A DNA stretch of 63,278 nucleotides from Candidatus Woesearchaeota archaeon (GCA_018303625.1 JAGVXV010000011.1:1-63278), one strand, 5' to 3'; shown: positions 18,778 through 46,247, counted from the stretch's first letter. The notes: generated by a model not told the origin, from the sequence alone. Made by a program: numbers and translations.

Positions 18778-18856
18778 GGGGGAATAGATTTATATCACTC
18801 TCCTTATGTTTTATTTATGTTCCCCACCCCCTTCTGATTTTTTTACTGAAAGAGAA
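18778..18856 (-). ncRNA. Pseudoknot-family element, copy 1 (3' of the MFS gene)
   Basis: Minus strand: ttctcttt/aaggagag (stem 1) interleaved with ggggaa/ttcccc (stem 2), CATAA after the G-tract, and a U-tract following. Confidence 0.55.
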
Positions 18857-18873
18857 ATAAATTGGCGCCTGTC

Positions 18874-20271
18874 TTAAGCTGGCTGGCTTTGTAAGGCTAC
18901 TGCTATTACATAAAGCAAAGTAACCATAACCAGAATCAGCGCCAACAGCAGGAACAGGCTGCTCAATCCGAATATCTGGGCAAAATAGGAAAGCATTGGG
19001 GCAAATACAAGATAGGCTATAATGACAAAGAAGCTGTAGAATGAGAAATAAAAGCCTCTTTCACTCTCGCTTACCAATTCCAATGCCAATAATCCATTGG
19101 CAACTCCGACAATGGCAGCGCCTATTATGCCCGACATGGTGCCCATAGCGACCAATATTAAATTCGGCTTGTAATAATAAGACAGGGGCATTACAGCCAT
19201 AAGCAATGTGCCAAAAGCCAATGTGGGGAATTTTCCATATGCCTTTGAATCTATCTTGGACACCAGCGAGCCAAAAATTGAGCTGAAAACAGCGATTAAA
19301 AAAACCACAGCGACATTAAGAAAGCCTCCAAATCCCTTGTTTATGAAATGGTCATAAACAAAAATCCCGTAATAGGAATTCCCTATTGTCTGGCTTAAGC
19401 TTGTTAAGGCGCCGGCAATAACAAGAATTAAAATGGCCCTGTTTCCCAGAAAATACGGCATTTTCTGCCTTAATTGACTCCATGATTCCCTGAAAGACTT
19501 GAAAGCGCTGCTGCCTTCTGATTCATCCTTAACATCAATAAAGGACAGGATATAGCCTGAAAGTATAAAGGAAAGCGCTGTTGCCTCGAATGCAATAAGG
19601 TAGCCGTAAACCCTAAAGGAGAATAATTTTCCGAATATGCTAAATTCGACAGGAACTCCGGTAATTGGGAAAAAATCCATCAGGAAAGCCGATACAAAAA
19701 GGCTTATGGCAGTTATTATCAGCCCGTAATTCACTATCCTCCTCAGATAGGTTTTGTCCTTTTCCCTTACAAGCTTCTGGTAAAGGTCGCTGTAAGGGAC
19801 TATGCTTGCGCCGCCGAGCAAAACAGCCAATGAGAACAGTGCAACCGAATGCAAAAACACAGCTGTGCTTATCAGCAAAAAGCTGAATCCAAATATTATT
19901 CCTGATGCGCTGACAATCCTCCTCACACTCTTGATTTTTGCATACTGCTGCAAAAGCAATGAAACCAATGTGCTTAAAACAACCCTGGCTCCGTTTATTG
20001 CGCCTATAACGAAAAACGACGCGCCTGTAAGAAAAAAAAGTATGCTGACAAACTGCTGGCTTCCGAAACCATAGCCTATCCTGTCAAAAATTTCCTTTGA
20101 TACCGGCAAGAATTTCTTATCTGGCTTTTTGGCGGAAGCAATTGCAATGGCCTTGCCTATCGCGTCATCTGCATTTTCCTGGCTATTTGCTTTTTCCGGC
20201 TCCCTGTTTATCTGCCTCAATGGCATTTTGGAGCTTAAACTTTTTTTTGTTTTCCCGGAAAGCTTGGCCAT
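18874..20271 (-). CDS. MFS transporter
   Basis: About 12 hydrophobic segments after a basic N-terminal extension; MFS-like two-fold organisation. Confidence 0.8.
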   Translation of the reverse strand: MAKLSGKTKKSLSSKMPLRQINREPEKANSQENADDAIGKAIAIASAKKPDKKFLPVSKEIFDRIGYGFGSQQFVSILFFLTGASFFVIGAINGARVVLSTLVSLLLQQYAKIKSVRRIVSASGIIFGFSFLLISTAVFLHSVALFSLAVLLGGASIVPYSDLYQKLVREKDKTYLRRIVNYGLIITAISLFVSAFLMDFFPITGVPVEFSIFGKLFSFRVYGYLIAFEATALSFILSGYILSFIDVKDESEGSSAFKSFRESWSQLRQKMPYFLGNRAILILVIAGALTSLSQTIGNSYYGIFVYDHFINKGFGGFLNVAVVFLIAVFSSIFGSLVSKIDSKAYGKFPTLAFGTLLMAVMPLSYYYKPNLILVAMGTMSGIIGAAIVGVANGLLALELVSESERGFYFSFYSFFVIIAYLVFAPMLSYFAQIFGLSSLFLLLALILVMVTLLYVIAVALQSQPA

Positions 20272-20378
20272 TGGCTATTTAGCTTGATAGTTTGTATTTA
20301 AACTTTTTTAATTTAGGCATTAGTGTATTAATACAAACATTTAAAAAACAGGTGCAATTCTAGGCTTTTGGCAATAAA

Positions 20379-20612
20379 ATGGCATTTGACAAAAATCTTG
20401 ACAGGGAATTATTTTCCGAAACTGCAAGCTTTGAGACAACAAGAATCAAAGTGGGCGTTTACAGCTATAATGACGGGGAGAAAAAGCTCCAGATTTCCAG
20501 GGAAAACATGAGCCAGGACGGCCAATGGAGCTTTGCAAAGCTCGGCAGGATGTTCAAAGACGAGGCAGAGGCTGTTATGCCCATGATTGAAAAAGCCCTG
20601 AAGCATATGTAA
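20379..20612 (+). CDS. Small conserved protein, PC4/YdbC-like ssDNA-binding fold (tentative)
   Basis: IKVGVYSYNDGEKKLQISRE..WSFAKLGRM..EAEAV resembles PC4-like folds. Confidence 0.55.
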   Translation: MAFDKNLDRELFSETASFETTRIKVGVYSYNDGEKKLQISRENMSQDGQWSFAKLGRMFKDEAEAVMPMIEKALKHM

Positions 20613-20635
20613 ATTGCTAGACAGGTTTCAATTGC

Positions 20636-22939
20636 TCATAAATGGAATTTTAGGTGGTAATGCAGATAATTCAGGACGGTATTATCAATAGGAACATTTT
20701 CGTACATTACTTGGCCACGGTAATTCAGGCTGTGCAATACGCCGCTTAGATTAATAATTTCACTGCTTGAGAATTCCTTCGGCACCTGGGTGTAAAGCCC
20801 GATGTTTTTTCTATAGAGGGTTACCTCATCATCTTCTGAGTAGAGAAACAACTTAGGTATTGAATAAATGCGCCTCAAAGCTTCAGGATAATACCTCCTA
20901 ACCATTCTTAAGTAATCGAGAACTGTTATCCCATTTATAAATTCCTCAAAAAAAAGGTCTTTGTCAAAAGCGCTGATGCCCTTCACAAGCACAGGCTTTA
21001 GCCTTTTTAATTCCGAGTATCTTTCCGGATCCGATTTTTTTTTCATCCTGAGCAGCCTTTTAAACGCCTCATGGTGCCTCATTGTAGCATCTTCAAAAAT
21101 CTTTACCCTCTCAATACTCGTTTTAAAAAAAATTGGGCCTATTGGGCTTGAAAGGATTTTAGTCAGGAGATTTTTTGAAATGCCTGCACGCTGGTAAAAT
21201 GAGTATAGCATTGGGTTCAGCATTCCTATGACATCTATGTGCTCCGGCCATTTATTGTAAGATCTTATGATTACAGCCTTTAATTCCTCTTTTAAGGCTA
21301 ATTCCTCTTTCCTCAACCTCTCAATAAATCCTTGGTCTAAATTTCCCTTTTTCGGGAATTGCAACAGCAACGCCTCTATCTGCTTTTCAACTTTTTTCAA
21401 AGCTAAATCAACCTCCAAGTCATAATGCATGATGGAAAAGATAGCTGCTGTTCCTCCAGTGCTATGGCCCAATGTGCAGATGCTTTTAAGCCCGAATCTT
21501 TGCTTTAAATACGAAGCTATGCGGAGTATATTTTCTGATATCTCGGCATAGCCAAATCCTCCCCTAGATTCTCCATGAGAAGGCAAATCAAAAATATAAA
21601 CCAGGTAATTGTCATTGGCTATAGAATCGGCGAGATTGGAATGAAGCTTTCTGTAAGAAGTAAGCGAAGTTGCTATAATAACCCCTTTGTCTGGAATCCT
21701 TGATGGGTCTTTAAGGTAAACGTCCCCTGCAATTGTTCCTCTGGCGCCCTGGATGTTCAGCCTGAATCTGTGTATTGGCCCTACTTTTCCAACCACATCG
21801 CTATACTCCCTTTTTTCTATTCCAAGCATCCTTGACTTGACATACTCTCCTGCAATAGTCTTGTCAAAATAAGTTTCTCTCCAGTATTCATATTGCGCAA
21901 AAACCCTTATCCTCTTTTCCAAATCAAACAATCTTGCCTTTGCCTGTGTGAAAAATACGTCCATATTTTTAGGCAGCTTATCCAATAATCTTGAAATGCT
22001 TTCCATCTCACGAAGCATTTCCGCTTCTTCTATGTTCAAGTCAATTTCAAGGTTTGTGACAGAATGAAAATGCCTCTTATAAAAATCAAGCAGATTTTTC
22101 ACGTCATAAACAAACCTGTATACCAGCAATAAGAGCTCATTGTACCTTTGCTCTAACTCTTTTTCCCGCAATGCCCATTTAGGTATGTCATAGATTGAAC
22201 CCTGCACATGCCCCCATTTTTCCCTGTAAAAGTTTTCAATGGACAATTCAATTATTTCTTTCTCCCTGGAAAAAGACTGCATCAGTCTCCCCAAATGAGC
22301 CATAAAGCCATCTTCATTGAGGATGTAAATCCCCTCCCTTGCTGCATTCCTTAATTCATCGCTCTGCTTTGAGAAAAGGTACAGCCTAAGGGGCTTGAAG
22401 GGCAATGCTCCCCTAGCCTCTCTTTTTTCGCTGCTTTGCTCCTTCCCAATATCGCGGGCTAGCCCTTTCAGAGTCTCTTTTATTTCGCCGCAAAGCCCGT
22501 CAAAATCCTTGACAGAGTTCCTTAAAGCCTCTCCTTGCCCCGATTTTTTTATGTCGAAAGGGTATTTGCCTTCCAGACGCAGGACCTGGACTTCTGTCTG
22601 AAGAATAAAATTAAGCAAAGAGTCTATCTTTCTTACTAACTTCAAATGCTCTGCGCCGCTTTTCTGTATAGCATACTCCACAAGCCCTATTATCCTTTGA
22701 ACTTCGATGATATAATCTTCTAAAAGTTTTTTGGAAAGTTTTGTTAAAGATTCCAAATCCGAAGAAAATCCGCCATGAACGCCTATTTTTATTATTCTTT
22801 CCAGACAGATTCTAAGCCTTGTTGCAACCGATGCTTCTTCCCTTTTGGCAACAGTTTTTAGGCGGATATCTTTATAGGTAACTCCAATAATATACTTCTC
22901 CGGCAAAAGGCCAGCCTGCATATTCTGCCTTAACATCAA
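20636..22939 (-). CDS. Alpha/beta hydrolase fused to a long N-terminal helical region
   Basis: FDLPSHGESRG, LGHSTGG nucleophile elbow, SEDDEV Asp and GVLHS His in the C-terminal half. Confidence 0.8.
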   Translation of the reverse strand: MMLRQNMQAGLLPEKYIIGVTYKDIRLKTVAKREEASVATRLRICLERIIKIGVHGGFSSDLESLTKLSKKLLEDYIIEVQRIIGLVEYAIQKSGAEHLKLVRKIDSLLNFILQTEVQVLRLEGKYPFDIKKSGQGEALRNSVKDFDGLCGEIKETLKGLARDIGKEQSSEKREARGALPFKPLRLYLFSKQSDELRNAAREGIYILNEDGFMAHLGRLMQSFSREKEIIELSIENFYREKWGHVQGSIYDIPKWALREKELEQRYNELLLLVYRFVYDVKNLLDFYKRHFHSVTNLEIDLNIEEAEMLREMESISRLLDKLPKNMDVFFTQAKARLFDLEKRIRVFAQYEYWRETYFDKTIAGEYVKSRMLGIEKREYSDVVGKVGPIHRFRLNIQGARGTIAGDVYLKDPSRIPDKGVIIATSLTSYRKLHSNLADSIANDNYLVYIFDLPSHGESRGGFGYAEISENILRIASYLKQRFGLKSICTLGHSTGGTAAIFSIMHYDLEVDLALKKVEKQIEALLLQFPKKGNLDQGFIERLRKEELALKEELKAVIIRSYNKWPEHIDVIGMLNPMLYSFYQRAGISKNLLTKILSSPIGPIFFKTSIERVKIFEDATMRHHEAFKRLLRMKKKSDPERYSELKRLKPVLVKGISAFDKDLFFEEFINGITVLDYLRMVRRYYPEALRRIYSIPKLFLYSEDDEVTLYRKNIGLYTQVPKEFSSSEIINLSGVLHSLNYRGQVMYENVPIDNTVLNYLHYHLKFHL

Positions 22940-23019
22940 AATTCCACTTAGAAAGATACTATTTAAACATTATTGTTTCTTAAATTCCAGTTGTTTTTTT
23001 CAGATTAAACAGCCCTTTC

Positions 23020-24420
23020 ATGCAAGAAATCGAAAATATTAAATACGTTTTTGCTAATTTGGGCATTAATAGCGCTTTTTTGCAGCATATTAAAATGGAA
23101 AAAGGGGTTTTGGAGCAGATTGAGCCTGAGGCTGGCAGGGCAGCCGAAAGGAAAAGCATCATCATTGACTTCTTCAGAGGCATAGCCTCAACTGTTGGCG
23201 GCAAAAGGGCCAGAAGGCTTGAGAAAAGATGGGATTTTTCCGCTGATGGCGCAATAACCTCGCTTACTTCCGCGATAGCTGGCGGAAAGAACATAGCAGT
23301 GTTCACGACAAAAAACGGCAAATTGTACGTTTTGAGTGAAAATGCCGAAGTGAAATTTGTATATAATCCGGAGGAAAAGCTGACGGAGGAGGAGCTTTTC
23401 TTCGCAGAAGAAAATACTGCAAGGAATATATACACAACTCCTGCCATTGCGGACATAAATAATGACGGGAAAGACGAGATAATTTTTGGCACTGACACCG
23501 GAAAGGTGTATGCGCTTGACCTCTCAGGAAAATTATTGTGGAGCTACAAAGCCCAGGATTCTGTCAGATCAAGCGCCATGATTGAAGACATCAACAATGA
23601 CAAAAAAATGAAGATAGTTTTCGGCTCAAATGACGGGAATTTATACGCACTGAATTCAAAAGGGAAGCTCCTATGGAAATTCAAGGCCAATTCCGGCATT
23701 GAGGCGAGACCGAGCCTGCTCAGGGGCAAAAAGCAGTCTCAAATAATTTTCGGCTCCAACGACGGGATTATCTATTCCGTTGACGGGAAAGGAAAGGCGC
23801 TTTGGCAGTTCAAAACTGATGGCAAGATAACAGCCGCTGCCTCAACAGGAAAACTATACAATGACGGCGAGGATTACATTGTCATAGGCAGCTTTGACAG
23901 CAATATTTACGCCCTAAATGCCAATGGCAAGCTTAAGTGGAAATACAAGACAGAAGGCAACATTTTCTCCGAGGCAAGCCTGGCTGACATCAACAACGAC
24001 AAAAAGCTTGAGATTATTTTTGGCTGCTGCGACGACAATATCTATGCATTATCATGCTCAGGAGACAGGATATGGAATTATGAAACTGATTTTTGGGTTG
24101 TTGCCTCGCCGCTGGCTGTTGACATAGACAACGACGGAAAGCTTGAAATAGTGGCAGGCTCCTATGACCGGTCACTGTACATACTCGATGCTGAAGGGAC
24201 ATTTTTGCTGAATTACATGCCCGGCATTTCCTCGATAACTCAGCAAAGCGGCTATTATGACGAGCCAATGACAAGCCAGCCCGGGGTATTTTACGGAAAA
24301 AAGCTCTGGTCTTATAAGACAGACGGCATGGTGGTAGGGATAGCATGCATGGCAAATAAAGAAAAAAATATAATAACAGGAACAGATACCGGGAAAATAA
24401 GCAGCTTTATTTTAAAGTAG
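23020..24420 (+). CDS. PQQ/FG-GAP-type beta-propeller repeat protein
   Basis: Repeated ADINNDGKDEIIFG / ADINNDKKLEIIFG / VDIDNDGKLEIVAG Ca-binding motifs alternating with YAL..GKLLW repeats; no signal peptide. Confidence 0.88.
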   Translation: MQEIENIKYVFANLGINSAFLQHIKMEKGVLEQIEPEAGRAAERKSIIIDFFRGIASTVGGKRARRLEKRWDFSADGAITSLTSAIAGGKNIAVFTTKNGKLYVLSENAEVKFVYNPEEKLTEEELFFAEENTARNIYTTPAIADINNDGKDEIIFGTDTGKVYALDLSGKLLWSYKAQDSVRSSAMIEDINNDKKMKIVFGSNDGNLYALNSKGKLLWKFKANSGIEARPSLLRGKKQSQIIFGSNDGIIYSVDGKGKALWQFKTDGKITAAASTGKLYNDGEDYIVIGSFDSNIYALNANGKLKWKYKTEGNIFSEASLADINNDKKLEIIFGCCDDNIYALSCSGDRIWNYETDFWVVASPLAVDIDNDGKLEIVAGSYDRSLYILDAEGTFLLNYMPGISSITQQSGYYDEPMTSQPGVFYGKKLWSYKTDGMVVGIACMANKEKNIITGTDTGKISSFILK

Positions 24421-24430
24421 AGGTGTTAAA

Positions 24431-25225
24431 ATGGCGGAAAAAAACGGCAAGATTAAAACTTACATAAAGGGGCTTGATGAAAATCTGCAGGGGGGAATTC
24501 CTGAAGGGCACCTGGTTTTGGTATGCGGAAGCGCAGGAACCATGAAGTCTTCTGTTGCATTCAACATAATATACAATGAAGTGCTTGAGGGAAAAACGGG
24601 CATATACCTTACTCTGGAGCAATCGCATGCTTCCCTGCTGAAGCAGATGGAGAACATGGAATTTGACCTGTCCAAGGTGAATGTGCAGGTCTTGGAGGAA
24701 ATTTCAAAAATTGACGAGGTTGCAAAAAAAGTGAAGTCCTCAAAAGGGACTTTGGTGATTTCCGACCTGGGCGCCATAAGGAAAAAGCTTGCGGATACAA
24801 AATTCGGGCCAAGCGGTGACTGGCTGAATGCAATGAAAAACATAATAAAAAAGATAAGCACAAGCTCAAAATGCGACTTATTTGTCCTGGATTCCTTATC
24901 AGCCCTCTATGTGCTGTCAAGCTTTGACAAGCCCAGAACAAAGATATTTCATATTTTCGAGTTTTTAAGGGATCTCGGATTGACATCTTTCCTTGTATCT
25001 GAAATGCCCATAGACCAGAGCAAATACAGCGAGTATGAGGTGGAGGATTTCCTTGCTGACGGCATAATCTACCTGCAGCTTACAAAAAGGTACAGGAAGG
25101 TTACAAGGGAAATTTCAGTAGTCAAGATGAGGGCTACGGAATGCAACAATGATGTTTTTACACTTGAGTACAAAAACAAGAAATTCCAGGCAACATTTGG
25201 CGGAAGAACTCCTTTAGTCGAGTAA
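24431..25225 (+). CDS. KaiC/GvpD-like RecA-superfamily ATPase (single domain)
   Basis: GLDENLQGGIPEGHLVLVCGSAGTMKS (Walker A), YLTLEQ, FVLDSL, FLADGIIYL, VVKMR. Confidence 0.9.
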   Translation: MAEKNGKIKTYIKGLDENLQGGIPEGHLVLVCGSAGTMKSSVAFNIIYNEVLEGKTGIYLTLEQSHASLLKQMENMEFDLSKVNVQVLEEISKIDEVAKKVKSSKGTLVISDLGAIRKKLADTKFGPSGDWLNAMKNIIKKISTSSKCDLFVLDSLSALYVLSSFDKPRTKIFHIFEFLRDLGLTSFLVSEMPIDQSKYSEYEVEDFLADGIIYLQLTKRYRKVTREISVVKMRATECNNDVFTLEYKNKKFQATFGGRTPLVE

Positions 25226-25247
25226 TTCCGCAATAATCAAAAAAGAG

Positions 25248-26234
25248 GTGCAGTTTATGGCAGATAAGGCATCAGTCCAGAAATGCAGGGAAGACTTAAA
25301 CAAGGTAAGGAAGGAGATAGCTAAAATTGTCGTCGGGCAGGAAAGTGTCATTGACGGCCTGCTCAGGGCTTTGGTTGCCAACGGCCATGTCCTGATCGAG
25401 GGTGTTCCGGGAATAGCAAAAACGCTTGTAATAAGGGCGCTGTCAGCCTCTACAGGATGCGGCTTCAAAAGGATACAATTTACAGCCGACCTTCTGCCGA
25501 CTGATATAATAGGCGTAACTTCTTATGAGGAGCAGAAAGGATTTTTTGTCATTAAAGGCCCGATTTTCAGCAATTTTATTCTGGGCGATGAGATAAACAG
25601 GGCGCCGCCAAAAGTGCAGAGCGCGCTGCTTGAGGCAATGCAGGAAAAGCAAGTCACTATAGGGAAAGAGACTTTTCCCTTGGATCAGCCTTTTTTTGTC
25701 CTTGCAACTCAAAACCCAATTGAATCTTTGGGAACATATCCCTTGCCAGAGGCCCAGATTGACAGGTTTTTGTTCAAGCTTTTAATAGGGTATCCAAGCA
25801 AGGAAGATGAAAGGAAGATAATTGAATACAACATATCAATGCAAAATTTTGAGGATTTTGGGGTTAAGCCTGCAATAAGCCCGCAGAGGATTATGGAAAT
25901 GCAAAAAACAACAAAAGAGATAGGGCATAAAGACAGGATAAAGGATTATATTGTGGACTTGGTAAATGCAACAAGAAACCCTGAAAAATACAGCATAAAG
26001 CTGGGAAAGTTCATACAGTGGGGATCTTCGCCAAGAGCGGGAATAAGCCTGTTTATTGGAGCAAAAGCTGATGCTTTGCTTAGAGGGGAAATGCATATAA
26101 AGCCGCAGAATGTAAAAAATGTAGCCTTGGATGTCCTGAGGCACAGGCTGATATTAAACTACCGCGGAGAGGCAGAGGGCATAAGCAAGGATGATATTGT
26201 AAAAGAGATAATTTCAAAGGTAAAAATTCCATGA
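25248..26234 (+). CDS. moxR: MoxR-family AAA+ ATPase
   Basis: GHVLIEGVPGIAKT, RIQFTADLLPTDI, DEINRAPPKVQSALLEAMQE, ATQNPIE, GSSPRA. Probable start is ATG at 25257. Confidence 0.96.
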   Translation: MQFMADKASVQKCREDLNKVRKEIAKIVVGQESVIDGLLRALVANGHVLIEGVPGIAKTLVIRALSASTGCGFKRIQFTADLLPTDIIGVTSYEEQKGFFVIKGPIFSNFILGDEINRAPPKVQSALLEAMQEKQVTIGKETFPLDQPFFVLATQNPIESLGTYPLPEAQIDRFLFKLLIGYPSKEDERKIIEYNISMQNFEDFGVKPAISPQRIMEMQKTTKEIGHKDRIKDYIVDLVNATRNPEKYSIKLGKFIQWGSSPRAGISLFIGAKADALLRGEMHIKPQNVKNVALDVLRHRLILNYRGEAEGISKDDIVKEIISKVKIP

Positions 26235-27115
26235 AAAGGCTGAAAGTTGACCTTGCAACCGCGACAAAGAACCTGAGGGTATTGACAAGCAGCCTTGTGA
26301 ACACAAAATTCATCGGCAGCTACAGAAGTGTTTTTCGCGGCAAAGGCCTTGAATTCAGGGACTACAGGCAGTACACTCCTGATGATGATGCTGCCTCGAT
26401 AGACTGGAAAGCCACGGTAAGGTCAAAGAAAACACTTATCAAGGAATTTGAGGAAGAGAGGAATTTGAACGTGTTTTTTCTTGTAGATGCCAGCTCGAGC
26501 ATGCTTCTCAGCTCAACGCCGAAACTGAAAAGCGAGTACGCTGCCGAGATTGTAGCTTCCCTGTCCAGGGCTATCCTTGAGTCAGGCGACAATGTCGGAT
26601 TTGCATTGTTTACTGACAGGCCCATGAAAAGCGTATTGCCTGACAGGGGAACGAAGCAGTTTTATATATTATCTGAAACAATTGTGGACATATCCCTTTA
26701 CGGAGGAAAGTTTGACTTAGGCGAGGCATTGAAATTTTTGATTGGATCGCTAAGCGCAGGCACACTGGTCATGATAGTTTCGGATTTCATAACGAGCAAT
26801 AACTGGGAGCAGTACCTTCAGATAGCCGCAAGAAAATTCGGGATTATAGGGGTAATGATAAGGGATCCTACAGACAGGGCATTGCCCAAAATCAGCGGCA
26901 GGGTGATTGTTTCAGACCCCTTTTCCAACAATGCGATGCTGATAGAGCCGAACTTGATCAGGGAAAGGTTTGCAAAGTACGTCAAGGAAGAGGAAAGAAA
27001 AATAAAGGACGCCTTTGTAAAAAACAATTCGGATTTTCTCGAGCTGACAACGGATGTGCCTTTTCTTGAGCCCCTGACTAAATTCTTCAAAATGCGCGAA
27101 TTAAGGCTAAGGTAA
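26231..27115 (+). CDS. DUF58 domain protein (vWA-like)
   Basis: GSYRSVFRGKGLEFRDYRQY..DDAASIDWK..EEERN..DASSSM; follows moxR. Confidence 0.92.
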   Translation: MKRLKVDLATATKNLRVLTSSLVNTKFIGSYRSVFRGKGLEFRDYRQYTPDDDAASIDWKATVRSKKTLIKEFEEERNLNVFFLVDASSSMLLSSTPKLKSEYAAEIVASLSRAILESGDNVGFALFTDRPMKSVLPDRGTKQFYILSETIVDISLYGGKFDLGEALKFLIGSLSAGTLVMIVSDFITSNNWEQYLQIAARKFGIIGVMIRDPTDRALPKISGRVIVSDPFSNNAMLIEPNLIRERFAKYVKEEERKIKDAFVKNNSDFLELTTDVPFLEPLTKFFKMRELRLR

Positions 27116-27117
27116 AA

Positions 27118-28053
27118 ATGGCTGAAATAACATTTGGAAACCCGATTTACCTGTGGTTTTTCCTCAGCATACCGGCGCTCGCTATTGTTCATCTTATCGG
27201 GCTGAAGCTCATTAAAAGAAGGGCGCTGGAGTTTGGAAATTTTGCTGCGCTCGAAAGGGTCGCGAAAAGGCCTTTTATCCCGAAAAACTATATTTTGCTT
27301 GGGATAAGGATAGCTACCCTGTCATTTTTGATATTGGCAATTTCCGGAACAACATTCTGGTATTTTGGCAGGAGCAGCGACTTTGATTTTGTTTTGGCGA
27401 TAGATGCTTCAAGCTCGATGCTTGCAGGCGACTTTCTGCCAAGCAGGCTAAACGCTGCTGTGGAAACCGCAAAAGACTTCGTTGACTCAATTTCCTCAAG
27501 GGCAAAAGTGGGCGTTGTTTCATTTGCAGGCACAAGCTTTGTCGAGCAGGCCCCTACCGAGGATTTTTCCAAGGTCAAAGATGCTTTGGACAGGATAGCT
27601 GTAAAGCCGATAGGCGGCACTGACCTGGGAGAGGCAATCATAACATCATCAAATTTGCTGATTGCAGAGGAAAGGGCAAAGATTGTAATTTTGCTCACAG
27701 ACGGCAGGAGCAATGTCGGAGTTCCTATGGAGCAGGCATTGGAATATGTAAACTCAAACCATGTCATAGTGCACACAATAGGCATAGGCACCGAAGAAGG
27801 CGGCCTTATTCCTGAAGCTGATGTTATCCTGAAGCTGGATGAGGAAGAGCTTAAAAGGATTGCATCGTCAGCAGACGGCAATTATTACAAGGCATCTGAC
27901 AGGGAAACACTGCAAAAATCCTATCTGGAGATTGTTTCAAGCACAAGGAAAAAGCTTTCTGTCAATTTGACAGTGCCTTTTATGCTTCTGGCTTTGGTTT
28001 TGTTGTTCATTGACTGGGGGCTGGTAAACACAAGGTATGGGATTATACCATAG
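27118..28053 (+). CDS. BatA/BatB-like membrane-anchored vWA protein
   Basis: N-terminal FGNPIYLW TM hairpin, MIDAS DASSSM, GGTDLG, LLTDG, HTIGIG, C-terminal TM. Confidence 0.92.
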   Translation: MAEITFGNPIYLWFFLSIPALAIVHLIGLKLIKRRALEFGNFAALERVAKRPFIPKNYILLGIRIATLSFLILAISGTTFWYFGRSSDFDFVLAIDASSSMLAGDFLPSRLNAAVETAKDFVDSISSRAKVGVVSFAGTSFVEQAPTEDFSKVKDALDRIAVKPIGGTDLGEAIITSSNLLIAEERAKIVILLTDGRSNVGVPMEQALEYVNSNHVIVHTIGIGTEEGGLIPEADVILKLDEEELKRIASSADGNYYKASDRETLQKSYLEIVSSTRKKLSVNLTVPFMLLALVLLFIDWGLVNTRYGIIP

Positions 28054-28186
28054 GATATTTATTTTTGATTTTTGTTTCAATTTTTATTTTTTTATTGAAT
28101 TTTTAATTCACTGGAAAGTTTCAAAGGGGTTTTTGGTGCCCCTAAAATCTTAGATTTTCGTGGGAAAATAATAAAAATAAAATCAT

Positions 28187-28264
28187 GGGGAATAGATTAA
28201 TGTTTGCTCTTTATTCCGCCGTTATGCTCCCAACCCCCCTGTGCATTCATTATCTTATAGAGCA
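28187..28264 (-). ncRNA. Pseudoknot-family element, copy 2
   Basis: Minus strand: tgctct/agagca interleaved with gggag/ttccc, GCATAA and AATCTATTCCCC shared with copy 1, then a U-tract. Confidence 0.55.
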
Positions 28265-28269
28265 TATAT

Positions 28270-28349
28270 TTGCACTTTAATGCAAAATATTAACGGGCTG
28301 GTGGATGGCATTAGTCTTCCAGAAAGTGCGTTCTTTAAATTCCATCCAC
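28270..28349 (+). ncRNA. Pseudoknot-family element, copy 3
   Basis: gcacttt (28272)/aaagtgc (28323) interleaved with gtggatgg (28301)/ccatccac (28342), then gattttattttttt. Confidence 0.6.
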
Positions 28350-28418
28350 GATTTTATTTTTTTGATAATAAAATGGAGATAATAAGAATGGGTACTTAAA
28401 AACTTGCTTTAAACTTTT

Positions 28419-29102: not shown

Positions 29103-29103
29103 T

Positions 29104-30505: not shown

Positions 30506-30517
30506 TTTCATGCTAAA

Positions 30518-30787: not shown

Positions 30788-30788
30788 A

Positions 30789-35324: not shown

Positions 35325-35356
35325 TCTTTAAATTAACCTTTATCTTTTTCTAACTT

Positions 35357-36562: not shown

Positions 36563-36588
36563 AATAAAAATAACCTTTGTTGCTGATA

Positions 36589-36667
36589 GCACTTTATCCC
36601 TTAATCTTTACTGGTGGGTGGAGGGCATAACTTTTCCAGTAAGTGAAGTCATAAATCTTCCCTCCCT
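36589..36667 (+). ncRNA. Pseudoknot-family element, copy 4 (3' of nre)
   Basis: cactt/aagtg and actgg/ccagt interleaved with ggaggg/ccctcc, GCATAA, ATAAATCT, then a U-tract. Confidence 0.6.
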
Positions 36668-36986
36668 GATTTTTCAGTTTAAATGTGAAACAAACAATAA
36701 ACTAAAAATATAAACAAAAACCAAAACATACTAATTGGCATTCGTAGCTTTGTTTTACTTCATAAAACAAAACATTTAAATATTTAATATGAATTCAATA
36801 AAAATCAAAATGGCTAACACGAATAAGAAATTAAATTCTGTATCGCTTTTGTTAGCTTTGACTCTATTGCTTCTATTGCTGTTGTAAGGCTCCACATTTG
36901 CCGGATATTCTGCAAAGAGCCTTTCATTGTTTTTGCTTGACTTAGTTCTGGAATATGCTGGCAGTAAAATCTTATGAGGTTAGAAA

Positions 36987-37277: not shown

Positions 37278-37317
37278 AGAATTAAGGAATTGATGCATGG
37301 AGTGACAAAAATGAAAA

Positions 37318-37836
37318 ATGGAGTTGGTGGAAATGAATGAAGGGTATACTGGACTTAGATTAATGAGAATCAAAAAACAGGAGGTTTATCCTGAATCCAG
37401 ATTGGATATAAGATGGGGACAGTTGCCAAACGGAGAGATGGATCTGAAAAAAACACCGTCAAAAGGGAAACCATATATGCTTGTTTGCGCAGATTTGGAG
37501 TATGGTGAAAAACAAGTGATCTATGTAGGCATATCCCCGATTCATGATGGATTGGAAGAACAAGCAGTGAATAATGCCTACTTGGATGCATTGGCGGGAA
37601 TGATTAGGGGTGAAGGGATCGAATGTGAAGTGCTGGCACAAGCGAGAGTAGTGCCAACAGGAAACGGACGAAGAATTTATGAAATGAGTGCAACTGTAAC
37701 ATCAGGCAATAATAGGGAGTATATGGCAACAGCAACCAACGAGGATCCTGAAAAGGCTGGGTTAGACGCCATTACAAAGGCAGTTTTAGAAATGATTATT
37801 CATAGCAGAAATTCAGCAACTGCACAGAAAAAGTAA
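37318..37836 (+). CDS. Hypothetical protein resembling a stand-alone LeuA allosteric regulatory domain
   Basis: YVGISPI..AVNNAYLDAL and ATVTS..YMATATNEDPEKAGLDAITKAV echo the duplicated beta3-alpha unit of the LeuA regulatory domain. Confidence 0.45.
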   Translation: MELVEMNEGYTGLRLMRIKKQEVYPESRLDIRWGQLPNGEMDLKKTPSKGKPYMLVCADLEYGEKQVIYVGISPIHDGLEEQAVNNAYLDALAGMIRGEGIECEVLAQARVVPTGNGRRIYEMSATVTSGNNREYMATATNEDPEKAGLDAITKAVLEMIIHSRNSATAQKK

Positions 37837-37843
37837 TCTCGGG

Positions 37844-40360
37844 CTATTTTAGATTATTAATATCCTCAAAAAATCTCTTAATAGTCTTAACCACATGCTC
37901 AGGCTGCGTCTGGAGTATTTTTGATATTTCGCCTAAAACATCTCCTTTGAATTTTTCCTTTTTGGTTAATATTAAATCATCTTTTTTCAGTGCAATGTTC
38001 TTTTTTGCAGCTTTCTTTGTTTTTTTCCACTTCTCAAACAATTCATTTACCCTTGAAGGCAGTTCATCAATCTTGACATCAAGCAGCTTTGCTGCCTCTT
38101 CCAGGATTTTTCCCTTCTCGCCTTTTTCCTTTTCAGCGGCTTTGCCGGCTGTAAACTCAATCCTCACAATGCTGTCGCTTATTTTTGTTGATTTCAGAAT
38201 CTTTATTTCTCCTGCTTCAGACGCATTATCCAGATGGGTTCCGCCGCAAGCCTGTACATCTATGCCTTCAATCTGGACAATCCTTATATTCTTTCCAGGC
38301 ACAGCGCCTCCCTGGTAAATGACCATTCCAAATTTTTTCTCCGCTTCTGTCCTGGGATAGAATTTTTTTATTATTTTTTTATTGGAATTTACAATTTTGT
38401 TTGCTTCATTTTCAATGTTTTTCAGCTGCTCTTGGCTTAGTGATTCATAATGTGTTATATCCAAAGTTGCTTTTTCTTTAGTTTTTTTAGCACCTGCCTG
38501 GTTAATATGCTTTCCTAAAACTTTCCTTGCAGCAGCCCCTACGATATGCGTTGCTGTATGGTGCTGAGCCAGCTGCTTCCTTCTTTCAGCATCAATTTTT
38601 ACAGTTACATCATCGCCAACTTTGAAATCAGGCGTGCTGCCCAAAACATGCACAATAACATTTCCCTGCTTGAAAATATCTACTATTTCATTATTATTGA
38701 TAGAGCCAATGTCATGTATCTGGCCCCCGGAAGTGGGGTAAGCGGCAGTTTTGTCCAAAACAACGTTATTGCCGATAATTTTCAAAACCTTTGCCTCGTT
38801 TTCATTCTTTAAATATGCATCATAATACAGAGCTTCAGTCTCCTTAACCCCCTCCAAATCAAGCTTTTCTTCTTTCTTTGTTGCGTGCTCCTGCTCTTTT
38901 CTTTCATGCAGTTCTGCAATTCTCGCATAAAAATTTTCAGGCACTTCAACCTCCTTTCCAAGCTTTTCAGCCTCTTCCCTTACAAGCTCTGGAGCAATCC
39001 CGTGGCTGTCGTAAAGCATCAGTAATTTTTCGTCATTGATTTTTTCTTTGATTAATTTTGAAATTATGCTTTTTGTTTTTTCCTTAGTTGCATTGTACTT
39101 CCTATTCTCGACATCCAAAATCTCATTTACCTCGCTTAAATTTTCCCTTAATTCCGGAAACAGGTTTTTCAGATAAATTGCATGCAAATCGCATAATTCC
39201 TTCAAATCAATTTTCCAGTCGTATTTGTCAATAAAAGACAAAGCCCTCCTGAATAAAACCCTTAAATTATACCCTCCGCCGACATTTGACGGCAAAGCGC
39301 CGTCAGATAGTGCAACAAGCAAAGCGCGGGAATGCTCTGCTATGGAATACAATGCAGCCAGCTCTGAAATTTTTTTCTTCAATCCAGAGACTTCATAACC
39401 TACTTTTTCTGCGACATTTTTCCATACCTTGTCAATATCCTCTACCTCATCGACATTAAGGTAAGAAGAATATGGAAGAAATTTTTTCATTAGGTTTTCA
39501 TCAACCTCAATTCCAGTTATCTTTTTAAGCCTTTCAACAACTGTTGGAAAGGTTGTCTCGTAGCTTGTTGATTTGCCCTGGGTAAACCACGCATTCCTTT
39601 CATGGCCCATTCCCATGTCCAAAACTTTTAAATTCAATTCCTTAAATCCGGAAGGCGTAACCTCATAAAGCATGTAAACCTGGTTTCCAAGTTCTAAGCC
39701 CCTGCTGAAATACTCCATGCACGGCCCGAAGTTGCCTCCGCCTGCCCATGCATCCTCATGGAATTTTATCTCATTGTTCGGAAGACCCAGCCCTATCTTG
39801 AGCCAGTTATGTATGTCGCGGAAATGCCTTGCCTGGCTCCATTCGGATGGCTTCATGAATGCGTGCTGACCTATCATCACAAAGCATGAATAATGGGCTC
39901 CTGTTATGCCTATATTGTCAATGTCATTAAACCTGAGGCAAAGCTGCGGAACAACCAAAGGATTGGCAGGAGGCTCCACTTCCCCTGAAACAACATAAGG
40001 CTGGAAATCATAAATCGAAGCCTGGACAAAGTCTGTATCCTGGCGCCATCTTGCAGTTACCGGATACCTTTTTATCGGAGTATAGCCCCATTTCTCAAAC
40101 AGCCCTGCAAATTTTTTCCAAACCCCTATATAATCCAGTTTCTTCGTTGCAGGGCTTTTTCCTATAAACCTGAAGCCGCCTGAGCATGAAGGGTCGCCGC
40201 ATACATCATCAGCCTGAGTCGACCAGAAAAAAGTCCCGCATTTGCTGCATTTTTTCCTTGAAAATCCTTCTTCTTTCAACACACTGGTAGCGTAATATTT
40301 ATCAGGATCTTTGCTAGCTTTGAGCTTAAACTCTTTCTTAATCTCTTTGTCAGTCGGCAT
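37844..40360 (-). CDS. alaS: Alanine--tRNA ligase (archaeal type, C-terminally shortened)
   Basis: FVQASIYDFQP, HEDAWAGGGNFGPCME, DMGMGHER, AEHSRAL, QHHTATH, QACGGTH. Probable start ATG 40360; no C-terminal DHHA1 GGG motif. Confidence 0.97.
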   Translation of the reverse strand: MPTDKEIKKEFKLKASKDPDKYYATSVLKEEGFSRKKCSKCGTFFWSTQADDVCGDPSCSGGFRFIGKSPATKKLDYIGVWKKFAGLFEKWGYTPIKRYPVTARWRQDTDFVQASIYDFQPYVVSGEVEPPANPLVVPQLCLRFNDIDNIGITGAHYSCFVMIGQHAFMKPSEWSQARHFRDIHNWLKIGLGLPNNEIKFHEDAWAGGGNFGPCMEYFSRGLELGNQVYMLYEVTPSGFKELNLKVLDMGMGHERNAWFTQGKSTSYETTFPTVVERLKKITGIEVDENLMKKFLPYSSYLNVDEVEDIDKVWKNVAEKVGYEVSGLKKKISELAALYSIAEHSRALLVALSDGALPSNVGGGYNLRVLFRRALSFIDKYDWKIDLKELCDLHAIYLKNLFPELRENLSEVNEILDVENRKYNATKEKTKSIISKLIKEKINDEKLLMLYDSHGIAPELVREEAEKLGKEVEVPENFYARIAELHERKEQEHATKKEEKLDLEGVKETEALYYDAYLKNENEAKVLKIIGNNVVLDKTAAYPTSGGQIHDIGSINNNEIVDIFKQGNVIVHVLGSTPDFKVGDDVTVKIDAERRKQLAQHHTATHIVGAAARKVLGKHINQAGAKKTKEKATLDITHYESLSQEQLKNIENEANKIVNSNKKIIKKFYPRTEAEKKFGMVIYQGGAVPGKNIRIVQIEGIDVQACGGTHLDNASEAGEIKILKSTKISDSIVRIEFTAGKAAEKEKGEKGKILEEAAKLLDVKIDELPSRVNELFEKWKKTKKAAKKNIALKKDDLILTKKEKFKGDVLGEISKILQTQPEHVVKTIKRFFEDINNLK

Positions 40361-41913: not shown

Positions 41914-42009
41914 ATTATAGGAAATAACTTTAATTTTCGTATACATTTATTATTTCCTAATAAGCAAATCACAACGAAAAGTTACGAATATTAGTGTGAT
42001 TTGCTATAA
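41914..42009. mobile_element. 96-bp MITE-like element, copy 2
   Basis: Identical to 17419-17514, in the same orientation, between convergent genes. Confidence 0.75.
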
Positions 42010-42036
42010 TTATCCTGAATTAGCGTTAAAAGTTAC

Positions 42037-44369: not shown

Positions 44370-44408
44370 TAAATGGGGAAAATATACTGATTATATAAAA
44401 AGTTTTCT

Positions 44409-45083
44409 TTATAAGGATATTAATGTAAATAAGCCAAATAAAATAAATAATACTGCCGTAATGATTTTTATTGCTTTTCTTGGCATTTTTTCAGCAATTT
44501 TGCTTCCAATAAAAACATTCAGCCCTATTGCTGTTGCAAGCGCTGAAATAACGCCAATAAATATGACAAGTGGAACTAAATACTTGGCAGCCAACAAGCC
44601 GGATGCTATCTGCGTTTTATCCCCAAATTCGCTTAGCAGAACAGCCAAAAATGATGTTGCTAAAGGGGTTTTGCTTAAAATTTCTTTCCCTTCTTTTTTT
44701 GGTTCCCTAAAAAATTTTTCAAATTTTTTGGGCACAAAAAATCTTTGATTTTTTCGTGTTTTGCCATAGAGCTTAATGAAAGCCCACAGGCCTAAAAGTA
44801 TGAATAAAGCGCCTATAGCATATTTGATTAAATCAGAGGATAAAGAAAAGCCAAAAAACGCCCCAACTAAAATGGCAATTCCGTCCATAAATGCATGCGC
44901 CAATAACGCGCCGGAGAATACTTTAAAGGAAGATTTAAATTTCAACGCCAATCCCAGGATTACCAGCTGCGTTTTGTCAGCGATTTCGGAGACCAATGCC
45001 AATGTGAAAGCGGCAATAAAAGGTTCAATCATAGCCTTATTAAAAACAACCTCATATAAAAACTTATTTAAACTATGCGCCAT
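44409..45083 (-). CDS. TMEM165/GDT1 (UPF0016) family transporter
   Basis: Two E-x-G/A-D-K-T-Q motifs (SEIADKTQ, SEFGDKTQ). Confidence 0.93.
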   Translation of the reverse strand: MAHSLNKFLYEVVFNKAMIEPFIAAFTLALVSEIADKTQLVILGLALKFKSSFKVFSGALLAHAFMDGIAILVGAFFGFSLSSDLIKYAIGALFILLGLWAFIKLYGKTRKNQRFFVPKKFEKFFREPKKEGKEILSKTPLATSFLAVLLSEFGDKTQIASGLLAAKYLVPLVIFIGVISALATAIGLNVFIGSKIAEKMPRKAIKIITAVLFILFGLFTLISL

Positions 45084-45241
45084 TCATTATTTTCATCATT
45101 AAAAATTTTATTTAAACACTATAACAATAAATTTATACAATGAAAATACTCAATTTTCAAGTATAAATTTCCGAAAATTTTCAATTTCCGACAAATTTAT
45201 AAATCAAAAATTTTAAACTATAAAAAACGGGTGGCTTTGTT

Positions 45242-46144
45242 ATGAAAATAGGCTTTATCGGCTTGGGGAGGATGGGCTATAACATTGCCCTTAACCTTCT
45301 GGATAAGAAATATGAGGTAGTTGCCCATAACCGCTCTCCGGAGCCGGTAAGGGAAATTGCAAGAAAAGGGGCAATTCCTGCTTTCACAGCAGAAGAATTG
45401 TGCAAAAAGCTTCCAAAGCCGAAAATCATCTGGCTCATGGTGACAGCTGGCAAGCCTGTTGATGAAACCATAAAAAAATTGCTGCCTTGCCTGCAAAAAG
45501 ATGACATTCTGATTGACGGCGGCAATTCAAATTTTATAGACACTGTAAGAAGGCACGGGCAATTAAGCAAAAGAGGCATTCATTATCTTGACTGCGGCAC
45601 AAGCGGAGGCTTAAAGGGAGCCAGGTACGGGGCCTGCCTGACAATCGGGGGCAATGAGAAAATTTTCAAAAAGCTTGAAAAATTATTCAAGGATATTGCA
45701 GCGGAAAATGGCTATTTATATACCGGCCCAAGCGGCTCAGGGCATTTTGTGAAAATTGTGCATAACGGGATAGAATATGTGATGCTGGAAGCTTTAGGCG
45801 AGGGATTTGACGTCTTGAATGCGGGCCCTTACAATTTAAACTTCAGGGAGATTGCAGATGTCTGGAGCCACGGCAGCATTATCCGCTCTTACCTGACAGA
45901 GCTTGCAGTCGAAGCCTTCAAAAAAGACCCAAAATTAAAAAAAATAAGGGGCGTTGTAGGGGGCGGTGAAACAGGAGCATGGGTTGCACAATACGCAAAA
46001 AAATGGAATGTTGCTGTCCCTGCCCTGGAGACAGCGTTAAAAATGAGGAAATTGTCAAGCAAAAAAGAAAGGTTTTCCGGGAAAGTAATTGCGGCTTTAA
46101 GGAATGAATTTGGCGGCCATGAGGTTGTAAAGAACAAGAAGTAA
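45242..46144 (+). CDS. gnd: 6-phosphogluconate dehydrogenase (decarboxylating, short type)
   Basis: GFIGLGRMG, WLMVTAG, IDGGNS, DCGTSGG, GHFVKIVHNGIEY, LRNEFGGH. Confidence 0.95.
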   Translation: MKIGFIGLGRMGYNIALNLLDKKYEVVAHNRSPEPVREIARKGAIPAFTAEELCKKLPKPKIIWLMVTAGKPVDETIKKLLPCLQKDDILIDGGNSNFIDTVRRHGQLSKRGIHYLDCGTSGGLKGARYGACLTIGGNEKIFKKLEKLFKDIAAENGYLYTGPSGSGHFVKIVHNGIEYVMLEALGEGFDVLNAGPYNLNFREIADVWSHGSIIRSYLTELAVEAFKKDPKLKKIRGVVGGGETGAWVAQYAKKWNVAVPALETALKMRKLSSKKERFSGKVIAALRNEFGGHEVVKNKK

Positions 46145-46164
46145 AATAAGAAAAATAAAAATCA

Positions 46165-46247
46165 TTTGCACTTTCACATTTAATTTTTCACAGGTGGGTG
46201 GAGGGCGTTGCAAAAAACATCAAGCGCAAAGAAATTTTACCCTCCCT
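46165..46247 (+). ncRNA. Pseudoknot-family element, copy 5 (between gnd and zwf)
   Basis: tttgcactt/aagcgcaaa interleaved with ggaggg/ccctcc, same spacing as the other copies, then a U-tract. Confidence 0.6.

Follow-up and report, generated by a model that had tools for sequence, protein, structure and literature searches.

REP doublets are mobilised in bacteria by RAYT transposases, and REP sequences affect mRNA 3′-end stability and termination, also between genes of the same operon (PMC3116915; PMC3337134; PMC3733652). The family described here, five copies of which lie in a 63,278-nt stretch of Woesearchaeota DNA (the window, analysed over its whole length), resembles REP, BIME and REPIN elements in that it is dense, strictly intergenic and lineage-restricted, compensatory changes preserve a G:C-rich helix in each unit, and singlets occur beside frequent inverted doublets that, as in Y/Z BIMEs, are made of two distinct unit types. 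A REP, however, is a simple palindrome of 20–40 nt, and this identity was rejected for a unit of ~95 nt in which the strands of the clamp helix (S2) lie ~46 nt apart, with one strand (S1′) of a second, interleaved helix inside the loop. Unlike a REP, the unit also carries an oligo-T tail, lacks a conserved GTAG/CGTC tag (GTAG occurs in 2/34 copies, at non-homologous positions, and CGTC in 0/34) and resides in an archaeal (DPANN) host, and, unlike with REPINs, the DNA examined yielded no RAYT or Y1 transposase. REPIN-RAYT systems are, to our knowledge, described in bacteria only.

ERIC/IRU, Correia (Neisseria), BOX/RUP and archaeal MITEs are imperfect palindromes of ~100–200 nt, intergenic and patchy among relatives. 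Repeats of the ERIC, Correia and MITE kind are co-transcribed with their neighbours and can insert between genes, adding terminator- or promoter-like activity. The present family likewise consists of dispersed intergenic imperfect palindromes that are patchy among relatives. It departs from the MITE-like class (PMC3184786) in that no terminal inverted repeats flanked by a duplicated target site are recognisable, on which ground a classical MITE was rejected, and no related autonomous IS was seen in the carrier loci examined. Unlike ERIC, Correia and MITE repeats, its doublets consistently join halves of two types, and single halves are common and keep their own internal helices.

Two RNA-level systems also invite comparison. 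As in intrinsic terminators, a G:C-rich helix is followed directly by a U-run on the same strand; unlike in terminators, many copies do not lie behind a gene and the loop is ~46 nt instead of 3–8 nt, which led us to reject a bacterial intrinsic terminator. Because of this loop length a terminator scan skips the copies, and over positions 18000–37999 none of c1–c4 (below) was called. In archaea, a T4–T7 run is a typical termination signal, and oligo-T suffices without a hairpin. The strand order S1–S2–S1′–S2′, which would give a pseudoknot topology near an RNA 3′ end, is shared with H-type pseudoknot 3′-end elements (for example exonuclease-resistant or tRNA-like viral ones), but the connecting loops are far longer (~17–27 nt), about one copy in three lacks S1, and there is no similarity in sequence or to Rfam families.

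The five copies in the window

Two covariance models (R1 and R2) both recover exactly five copies, c1–c5, in the window and none beyond these (E 1e-10 to 1e-15; runner-up E ~1–2), and a degenerate pattern built from the copies matched 4/5 of them and 0/100 shuffles. These models and the helix coordinates bear out the five-copy family that an earlier note on this DNA had proposed, along with the order and spacing given there: S1, an AT-rich stretch, G-rich S2, CAT(A/T)A, S1′, S2′ and a T-tract. The copies are as follows.

c1, 18766..18861, (-): single unit of type B, clamp GGGGAA/TTCCCC; R1 83.8 bits, R2 78.8 bits
c1 S1, 18849-18856 / 18798-18805, (-): 8 bp, 2 of them G.U
c1 S2, 18820-18825 / 18779-18784, (-)
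c2, 28174..28268, (-): B-like unit, GGGAG/TTCCC, left half of a head-to-head doublet; covariance models 89.1 and 78.4 bits
c2 S1, 28259-28264 / 28205-28210, and S2, 28227-28231 / 28188-28192, (-)
c3, 28267..28360, (+): A-like unit, GTGGATGG/CCATCCAC, right half of the doublet; covariance models 89.4 and 66.2 bits
c3 S1, 28272-28278 / 28323-28329, and S2, 28301-28308 / 28342-28349, (+)
c2/c3 doublet, 28170..28365, no strand: ~190-nt imperfect palindrome of A-tract, reverse complement of c2, c3 and T-tract
c4, 36584..36678, (+): type A unit, GGAGGG/CCCTCC; covariance models 94.3 and 80.2 bits
c4 S1, 36590-36594 / 36641-36645, and S2, 36620-36625 / 36660-36665, (+)
c5, 46163..46258, (+): type A unit; covariance models 82.7 and 79.5 bits
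c5 S1, 46165-46173 / 46222-46230 (one A.C mismatch), and S2, 46200-46205 / 46240-46245, (+)

By its covariance-model start, c1 begins 13 nt past the stop of an MFS-like gene (18874-20271, minus strand), and c4 begins 22 nt past the stop of an Nre gene (35357-36562, plus strand), while c5 occupies the 226-nt spacer between a 6PGD-like gene (45242-46144) and the G6PD gene (46371-47930). That three copies begin close behind the stop codon of a co-oriented gene, as had been noted, holds for c1, c4 and c5, at 18–27 nt by the first coordinates and 13–22 nt from the covariance-model start. The c2/c3 doublet, whose c3 half shares 2 nt at its 5′ end with c2, lies between convergent genes (27118-28053, plus strand; 28419-29102, minus strand), with T5 runs already present between these genes and the doublet; the RNA reading through it has a folding energy of -47.9 kcal/mol (z = -2.85). 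Identity among the window copies is only ~65–70%, so no recent transposition is visible in the window.

Helices, subtypes and doublets

The basic unit of ~95 nt is closed by S2, a 6-bp G-rich/C-rich clamp around the ~46-nt loop. Most units also have S1 (TTGCWCTT / AAGWGCAA) as a second long-range helix interleaved with S2, and the unit carries a conserved G-run and an oligo-T tail (T4 or longer in the final 16 nt in 31/34 copies). In S2, 98% of cells are paired, compared to 86% in shuffles and 69–79% in slid controls, with three strongly covarying positions and the pair types GGAGGG/CCCTCC, GGGGAA/TTCCCC, GGAGGA/TCCTCC, GGAGAA/TTCTCC, GGGGAG/CTCCCC and the pair found in c3, where alone one S2 position is U-A. 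RNAalifold independently gives S2, and S2 only. For S1 the paired fraction is 70% of cells versus 34–49% in slid controls, its mean duplex energy is -7.0 versus -3.7 kcal/mol in shuffles, and its covariation score of 0.178, versus 0.127 in shuffles, was reached by 2/500 of these. The helix has at least 6 bp in ~20/32 copies and is absent or degenerate in ~10/32; an A-U/U-A swap follows subtype, and a G-C pair has changed to U-A in c1, relative to the type-B consensus, and in one copy elsewhere (L099:8399). Of the compensatory pairing claimed earlier for both helices, the S2 part is strong in the larger alignment and the S1 part moderate only; likewise, the pseudoknot described there has a solid S2, while its S1 fails in about one copy in three and escapes RNAalifold. 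The G-run, S2 and the tail seem far better conserved than the loops, as if every resident copy were under selection, although the retrieval pattern and the model inflate this figure.

Head-to-head doublets occur at nine loci including c2/c3, or ~seven independent ones once strain duplicates (L083/L092, L104/L111 and L105/L112) are collapsed; without c2/c3 these are 8 loci, ~6 of them independent, and the remaining doublets sit at different loci. Such inverted doublets in the REP/REPIN style thus recur at many loci. In seven of the nine the 5′ ends of the two halves overlap by 1–6 nt, and in L094 by 33 nt. All nine pair one GGAGG-type with one GGGGA/GGAGA-type unit: an A/C-type unit with GCAC in S1 and a GGAGGG or GGAGGA clamp, and a B/D/E-type unit with GCTC in S1 and a GGGGAA, GGAGAA or GGGGAG clamp. 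This constant mixed makeup indicates that the doublet is copied as one unit. The family and its subtypes are real, S2 covaries, and the same doublet layout is found again at loci unrelated to one another.

G.U pairs are no commoner than A.C mismatches (14 versus 22 in S1; 2 versus 3 in S2), so the pairing data leave an RNA of the given strand and single-stranded DNA, or the other strand, undistinguished. This lack of a G.U excess, together with a near-palindromic doublet centre (AAAGWGCAA-N3-TTGCWCTTT), would suit clustered half-sites bound by DNA-binding proteins, as in an operator, an insulator or a site of chromatin organisation, with no folded nucleic acid at all, which we regard as highly improbable: several S1/S2 types coexist in a genome, each matching its own partner strand, so that several proteins of different specificity would be needed, and while the strands within a unit pair exactly, the two halves of the central palindrome invariably carry mismatches to each other.

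That the element is a riboswitch, a ribozyme or a structured cis-regulator of some other known kind is barely credible and already largely refuted. The pseudoknot-like topology followed by a U-run is superficially that of small pseudoknotted riboswitches, but Rfam 15, whose families include riboswitches, ribozymes, sRNAs and C/D and H/ACA RNAs, gave no match at gathering level in the window, as the earlier note had anticipated for a new family, and E-value mode over 28100-28440 and 10 carrier loci returned noise only, plus one tRNA elsewhere. The genes beside the copies are unrelated in function (MFS, VWA, Nre, 6PGD/G6PD, CTP synthase, CorA, ribosomal protein S15), several copies are not followed by a co-oriented gene, and nothing supports the ribozyme idea that had been raised. 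Archaeal C/D box sRNAs were rejected as well (TGATGA in 0/34 copies; CTGA in 6/34, with no conserved column), as were integron attC sites (R″, RYYYAAC, in 0/34 and R′, GTTRRRY, in 1/34, with copies not arrayed as cassettes).

Gene context and distribution

A rival reading, built on the main idea of the earlier note, is a host-evolved, non-mobile cis terminator or 3′-end stabiliser, duplicated and with each copy kept for its upstream gene. Consistent with this, all 5/5 window copies are co-oriented with the upstream gene, three of them starting 13–27 nt past its stop, the clamp and T-tail are conserved, and singles in tandem-gene contexts number ~6 co-oriented versus at most 3 anti-oriented. 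Beyond the window, however, divergent as well as tandem contexts also occur, and a specifically gene-3′ element was not borne out. Divergently transcribed genes flank ~5/14 singles and, among the 8 doublets with both flanks known (2 convergent, 3 tandem, 3 divergent), 3/8; examples are L099 (CTP synthase / 541-aa gene) and L122 (CorA / 229-aa gene). Copies at such sites have no gene upstream whose transcript they could end. The terminator scan shows no excess of hairpin-type terminators in the genome (19 found versus 20.4 expected), both terminators of a doublet lie distal to their own genes, similarity spans the whole unit, which points to shared descent of the copies instead of convergence, and the uneven occurrence of the family and its insertion into conserved gene pairs favour gain as a repeat. 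We therefore consider a cis terminator of this kind rather unlikely.

Independent trans-acting small ncRNAs of ~60–95 nt, each copy with its own promoter and oligo-T terminator, would account for copies in every gene context, divergent ones included, each with a terminal T-run, and for unpaired motifs conserved beyond the needs of a terminator (the G-run, CAT(T/A)AC and AAGWGCA). For example, the C-rich strand, or else motifs in the loops, could target the host's G-rich Shine-Dalgarno sequence (GGGGGTGG); the G-run string is identical to Shine-Dalgarno sequences upstream of several genes. Units of types A and B have a TATA-like CTTTAAA or CTATAAA ~25–28 nt upstream of the S2 5′ strand, but type C and D units lack such a stretch, nothing upstream of the unit is conserved, and the promoter consensus of the genome (an A-rich BRE plus TTTAAATA) is not matched at a fixed distance. 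The 33-nt overlap in the L094 doublet leaves no space for two promoters, and an internal promoter would exclude the S1 5′ strand from the RNA, yet S1 covaries. Furthermore, the variable stretches track subtype phylogeny, unlike guides, and the family is missing from the nearest relatives and lies within gene groups that form operons in other lineages. Small ncRNAs are accordingly an unlikely explanation.

The distribution of the family is patchy, with copies present in a few Woesearchaeota-type DPANN archaea. One metagenome pattern scan gave 41 loci, ~25 of them confirmed by covariance model, against ~17 chance loci expected from the pattern's information content, about equal to the unconfirmed remainder; its yield was 40 matches, or ~29 unique copies without strain duplicates. 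Across 1.25 Mb around AlaRS from 80 other Woesearchaeota/Nanoarchaeota species, R1 had 0 matches and R2 one weak match (32.8 bits), and no family match was found in 52 kb of the nearest G6PD relatives.

Copies occupy sites where the genes of close relatives tightly abut. The 6PGD–G6PD gap, 226 nt with c5 in the window, is 1–6 nt with no element in four contigs from three related lineages, whose G6PD is 70–74% identical to that of the window. An equivalent of c4 is missing from the syntenic Nre–AlaRS spacer of loci L001–L006. Conversely, the L084 doublet separates homologues of MoxR and DUF58 genes that overlap by 4 nt in the window. Between L105 and L112, flanks are 99.9% identical, yet one doublet half is only ~80% identical and adjoins a 1.8-kb indel.

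The 67 window ORFs include no transposase or HUH/Y1 gene, their sole recombinase being one serine recombinase (8300-9037), and no Y1_Tnp-like Pfam match was found in them or in 10 copy-adjoining ORFs elsewhere, a small part of the carrier genomes. No protein recurs beside copies across the other carrier loci. Around singles and doublets there is no target-site duplication, direct repeat or sharp end; doublet ends are inverted A/T runs plus a C-run, and the boundaries grade into AT-rich DNA.

A proposed dispersed repeat with a possible transcript-end role

Overall, the family looks more like a dispersed REP/REPIN/MITE-like repeat than a dedicated gene-3′ RNA, and the mobile repeat that the earlier note had offered as an alternative fits best with the patchy distribution, recurrent doublets and context independence. 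We give about even odds to a lineage-restricted, gained-and-lost interspersed repeat (REP/REPIN-, ERIC- or MITE-like) that is possibly also a polar transcript-end module. Singlets and doublets would spread, or come and go, as DNA, in the manner of REP/REPIN, ERIC, Correia and MITE elements. The difference between the two helix sets of a doublet would let each half fold on itself, avoiding one long palindrome. On sense read-through from a neighbour, the clamp helix and U-run would form a defined, structured RNA 3′ end, through termination at the oligo-T and/or protection from 3′ exonucleases, and a doublet would work in both directions. The clamp helix and oligo-T tail may thus act as a polar transcript-end module.

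The head-to-head layout places each T-tail distal to the gene that it would terminate, an arrangement that speaks against a transcript-end role, as do the sufficiency of oligo-T for archaeal termination and the T5 runs already present between the genes and the c2/c3 doublet. Against mobility count the lack of a transposase gene in the window, of a protein recurring beside copies and of target-site duplications or sharp ends, as well as the low identity among window copies and the seeming selection on each copy.

More tentatively, and with a doubtful standing, the family could be an archaeal counterpart of REPINs and BIMEs, vertically persistent and occasionally mobile, whose unlike halves are each pseudoknot-like, direction-specific, hairpin-assisted transcript-end or insulator modules; for termination in archaea, oligo-T by itself is otherwise taken to suffice.

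The genomes of DPANN archaea are tiny and gene-dense, and we know of almost no non-coding elements described in them. The window holds about one structured repeat per 12 kb, and if this density holds genome-wide the family would be a sizeable share of the organism's intergenic DNA. Should the units end or stabilise transcripts, this would be a case of hairpin-assisted 3′-end formation in an archaeon and a route to operon splitting, at 6PGD|G6PD here and, in a relative, at MoxR|DUF58. Should their mobilisation resemble that of REPINs, the relationship between repeat and transposase would extend beyond bacteria. Under either reading the family is an addition for RNA and repeat libraries, as well as a marker that causes breaks in metagenome assemblies of the carrier lineages.

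Five copies in the window and their relatives elsewhere

The window comes from the chromosome of a Woesearchaeota-type DPANN archaeon and carries genes for archaeal Nre, aRF1, ribosomal protein L37ae, prefoldin and AlaRS. Its AlaRS as query retrieved 80 loci in Woesearchaeota or Nanoarchaeota MAGs, at identities of up to 81%, and exact matches to its Nre protein lie on contigs of many aquifer-type samples, in 48 collection blocks. At threshold, Rfam places no family anywhere in the 63 kb, and ARAGORN finds no tRNA or split tRNA there. The promoter consensus is strong, with an A-rich BRE and then TTTAAATA about 25-40 nt before the start codon (e.g., genes 20271-, 33928-, 40378- and 53365+), and many genes seem to have short or absent leaders.

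An earlier note had described five pseudoknot-like copies of a repeat in this DNA. All five are present at the places it named, and their S1/S1′ and S2/S2′ strands pair as it described. The covariance-model bounds of the copies are:

18766-18861, minus strand: copy c1
28174-28268, minus strand: copy c2, one half of a head-to-head pair
28267-28360, plus strand: copy c3, the other half, its 5′ end overlapping that of c2 by 2 nt
36584-36678, plus strand: copy c4, behind the Nre gene
46163-46258, plus strand: copy c5, between the 6PGD-like and G6PD genes

The unit runs S1, G-run, S2, CAT(A/T)A, S1′, S2′ and T-tail, where S2 is a 6-bp clamp helix and S1 is interleaved with it. A degenerate pattern built from the five copies matches four of them and none of 100 shuffles, while two covariance models run over the window with no filters recover exactly these five (66-94 bits; next match E ~1-2). 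Rfam returned nothing relevant, in gathering mode over the whole window or in E-value mode over the c2/c3 locus and 10 carrier loci, and literature searches on Woesearchaeota and other DPANN archaea yielded no description of such a repeat.

Further copies were sought in metagenomes with a degenerate DNA pattern, which returned 41 loci. About 25 hold true members and the remainder are chance matches, roughly as predicted from the information content of the pattern (our own estimate being ~17). The covariance model gives 40 matches within these loci, including partner copies that do not match the pattern itself, and ~29 additional distinct copies are left once strain duplicates are removed. The carriers are diverse, as proteins shared with the window are 44-61% identical. 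Subtypes were set by the clamp and S1. One type-A unit (L106:1966-2110) has an insertion of ~45 nt within its G-run (GGGTGG^...^TTGGTGGAGGG).

Subtypes of the repeat unit, by S1 and clamp
Subtype A: S1 GCAC; clamp GGAGGG/CCCTCC
Subtype B: S1 GCTC; clamp GGGGAA/TTCCCC
Subtype C: S1 GCAC; clamp GGAGGA/TCCTCC
Subtype D: S1 GCTC; clamp GGAGAA/TTCTCC
Subtype E: S1 GCTC; clamp GGGGAG/CTCCCC
Copy c3: clamp GTGGATGG/CCATCCAC

The window holds other repeats. One of ~96 nt (17419-17517 and 41914-42012) has two copies that are 99% identical with sharp boundaries, contains two internal hairpins (TAGGAAATAA...TTATTTCCTA and AGCAAATCACA...TGTGATTTGCT) and has no Rfam match; its appearance suggests a MITE-like or small-RNA element that was duplicated recently. 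Tandem 11-nt repeats of TTTTGGGACTA and TGGGAATGAAA units (10544-10721) lie ~1.5 kb from a serine recombinase gene (8300-9037, minus strand; Pfam Resolvase and Recombinase). A direct repeat (59659-59792 and 60819-60952, 81% identical) takes in the 5′ ends of the neighboring ORFs 59789-60799 and 60949-63276 together with the sequence upstream of each. Neither ORF has a Pfam match, and their shared 5′ parts suggest that the two are related.

Pairing in the two helices and in doublets

The clamp helix is the better supported of the two. S2 pairs in 98% of 202 cells, compared with 86% in shuffles and 69-79% with a slid 3′ strand, although all extra copies were retrieved through one pattern and models that contain S2, so that the conservation measured for S2 and the tail is at most an upper limit. 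The pairing itself was not forced by retrieval, because the pattern permitted R and Y independently at the switching positions. Three positions alternate between G-C and A-U in 12-15 sequences each, and RNAalifold recovered S2 independently. Conservation extends to the G-run 5′ of S2, a CAT(T/A)AC motif 3′ of S2 and the T-tail, to a degree inflated by the retrieval method.

S1 is weaker, pairing in 70% of cells as against 34-49% when slid. Its covariation score is 0.178 compared with 0.127 in shuffles, a value reached by 2 of 500 shuffles, and its mean duplex energy per sequence is -7.0 versus -3.7 kcal/mol for shuffles. At least 6 bp form in ~20 of 32 copies, while S1 is missing in about ten. 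Its variation is mostly one A-U/U-A swap that tracks subtype. Two further differences speak for S1 independently of that swap: c1 and L099:8399 carry U-A in place of G-C, and L094 has an additional C-G. Local sequences in types A and C could compete for S1′.

G.U pairs are no commoner than A.C mismatches in the elements, so these data fit either RNA of the element strand or single-stranded DNA as the folding species, and an argument for RNA from such an asymmetry was dropped. Single-sequence MFE folding was unremarkable (z +0.6 to -1.8) and did not recover the pseudoknot. An inner CTGG/CCAG helix of c3 and c4 was not kept in the larger set. By alignment inspection, the alternative register AAGGGGG/CCCCCTT is perfect in type B and mismatched in type A, so it lacks support as a trait of the family, and a G-quadruplex in the G-run is possible in types A and C and impossible in types B and D.

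Head-to-head pairs, or doublets, occur at nine loci, and all nine join one A/C-type half to one B/D/E-type half (chance ~0.004 for about eight independent pairs, if both classes are equally frequent). In seven of them the junction of the two 5′ ends falls within 1-6 nt. Since the doublet loci differ from one another, it is the doublet as a whole that has been copied. When transcribed from end to end, a doublet can also form one long imperfect hairpin (z = -2.85). On our reading of the sequences, S1 and S2 of each half match their own partners exactly and those of the other half only with mismatches, which we take as selection for independent folding, for avoiding a perfect long palindrome, or both.

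Distribution and turnover

The first covariance model found no match in 1.25 Mb of other Woesearchaeota; with the improved model, the 1.25 Mb from 80 other species gave one weak match (32.8 bits), and 52 kb of the nearest G6PD relatives (70-74% identical) gave no match. Conservation in synteny was rejected, as no element occupies the relatives' Nre-AlaRS and 6PGD-G6PD loci. The 6PGD-like/G6PD spacing is 1-6 nt in four contigs of three related lineages and 226 nt in the window, with c5 between, and in L001-L003 the conserved spacer between Nre and a small ORF lacks c4. A tiny ORF (MANTNKKLNS...LLLL*, ~26 aa), kept 3′ of Nre in these three loci and at ~36820-36930 in the window, is followed by a hairpin with a compensatory stem change (GGCTC/GAGCC versus GGCCC/GGGTC), and may encode a small membrane peptide or form a structured RNA. 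The Nre-AlaRS spacers of L004 and L006 hold other structured-looking, GC-rich RNA-like sequence 3′ of Nre, which in L006 appears to be intron-containing tRNA-like genes.

In L084 a doublet lies between MoxR and DUF58 homologues; the corresponding window genes have a 4-nt overlap. Between two strains (L105:1380-1960 and L112:8010-8600) the flanks are 99.9% identical and one doublet half only ~80%, a pattern that suggests conversion between dispersed copies. A 1.8-kb indel, with a 516-aa ORF in L112 only, directly adjoins this doublet. Pfam searches of every one of the 67 window ORFs, and of 10 ORFs that neighbor copies at other loci, found no transposase, and no protein recurs beside copies. 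At L091, two copies flank a 139-aa ORF that by eye resembles a PIN-type toxin, next to a small antitoxin-like ORF. A viral origin was rejected, the IMG/VR pattern scan giving two matches, at chance level.

Gene neighborhood and proposed function

In the window, the stop codon of a co-oriented gene precedes the start of c1, c4 and c5 by 13-22 nt (model start) or 18-27 nt (coordinates of the earlier note), as had been observed. The wider claim that copies lie downstream of genes fails as a general rule outside the window, where, with genes taken as longest-ORF calls, copies also sit between divergent and tandem genes. Doublets occupy two convergent, three tandem and three divergent spacers. Singles follow co-oriented genes (c4, c5, L120, L090, L089), sit in spacers between divergently transcribed genes (L099:8399, flanked by CTP synthase and a 541-aa gene; L109, L102, L119, L093) or are, in possibly three cases, antisense to both neighbors. 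The adjoining genes are functionally unrelated.

It is unlikely that the copies are autonomous small RNA genes. No promoter signal was found, as BRE plus TTTAAATA has no match at a fixed position or distance, upstream or inside, and nothing is conserved in the sequence upstream of the unit; types C and D and the overlapping L094 doublet also count against such genes. A small ORF after an SD-like G-run was rejected, since neither a start codon nor a frame is conserved and the indels are not multiples of three. Bacterial-type terminators are not enriched.

The SD-like string GGGGGTGG precedes several starts (genes 18058, 42312 and 15065, all minus strand; at 42312 it reads ccaagggggtgggaatGTG, compared with CAAGGGGGTGGGGAAC in type-B units) and is the same string as the type-B G-run, so the C-rich S2 strand is complementary to SD sequences of the host. 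An A-rich motif, CAAACAATAAAC, stands 3′ of c4 and c5 (36687-36719, 46300-46332) and in a tandem array inside ORF 60949-63276 (61628-61740); this recurrence is probably a low-complexity coincidence.

What the evidence supports best is a lineage-restricted interspersed repeat, present as singlets and as mixed-type inverted doublets; the elements that resemble it most closely are those of the REP/BIME/REPIN, ERIC, Correia and MITE types. It lacks the unit size and GTAG/CGTC tag that define REPs proper and, so far in the carrier genome fragments, a RAYT gene, and it lacks the terminal repeats with target duplication that define MITEs; on these grounds we class it as a novel variant on such elements and not as a member. 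The unit may act as a polar transcript-end or 3′-stabilizing module, a reading that fits the presence of clamp helix and U-run on the same strand as well as the position of c1, c4 and c5 just past stop codons. In doublets, the action of the module would be bidirectional, like that of intercistronic REPs.
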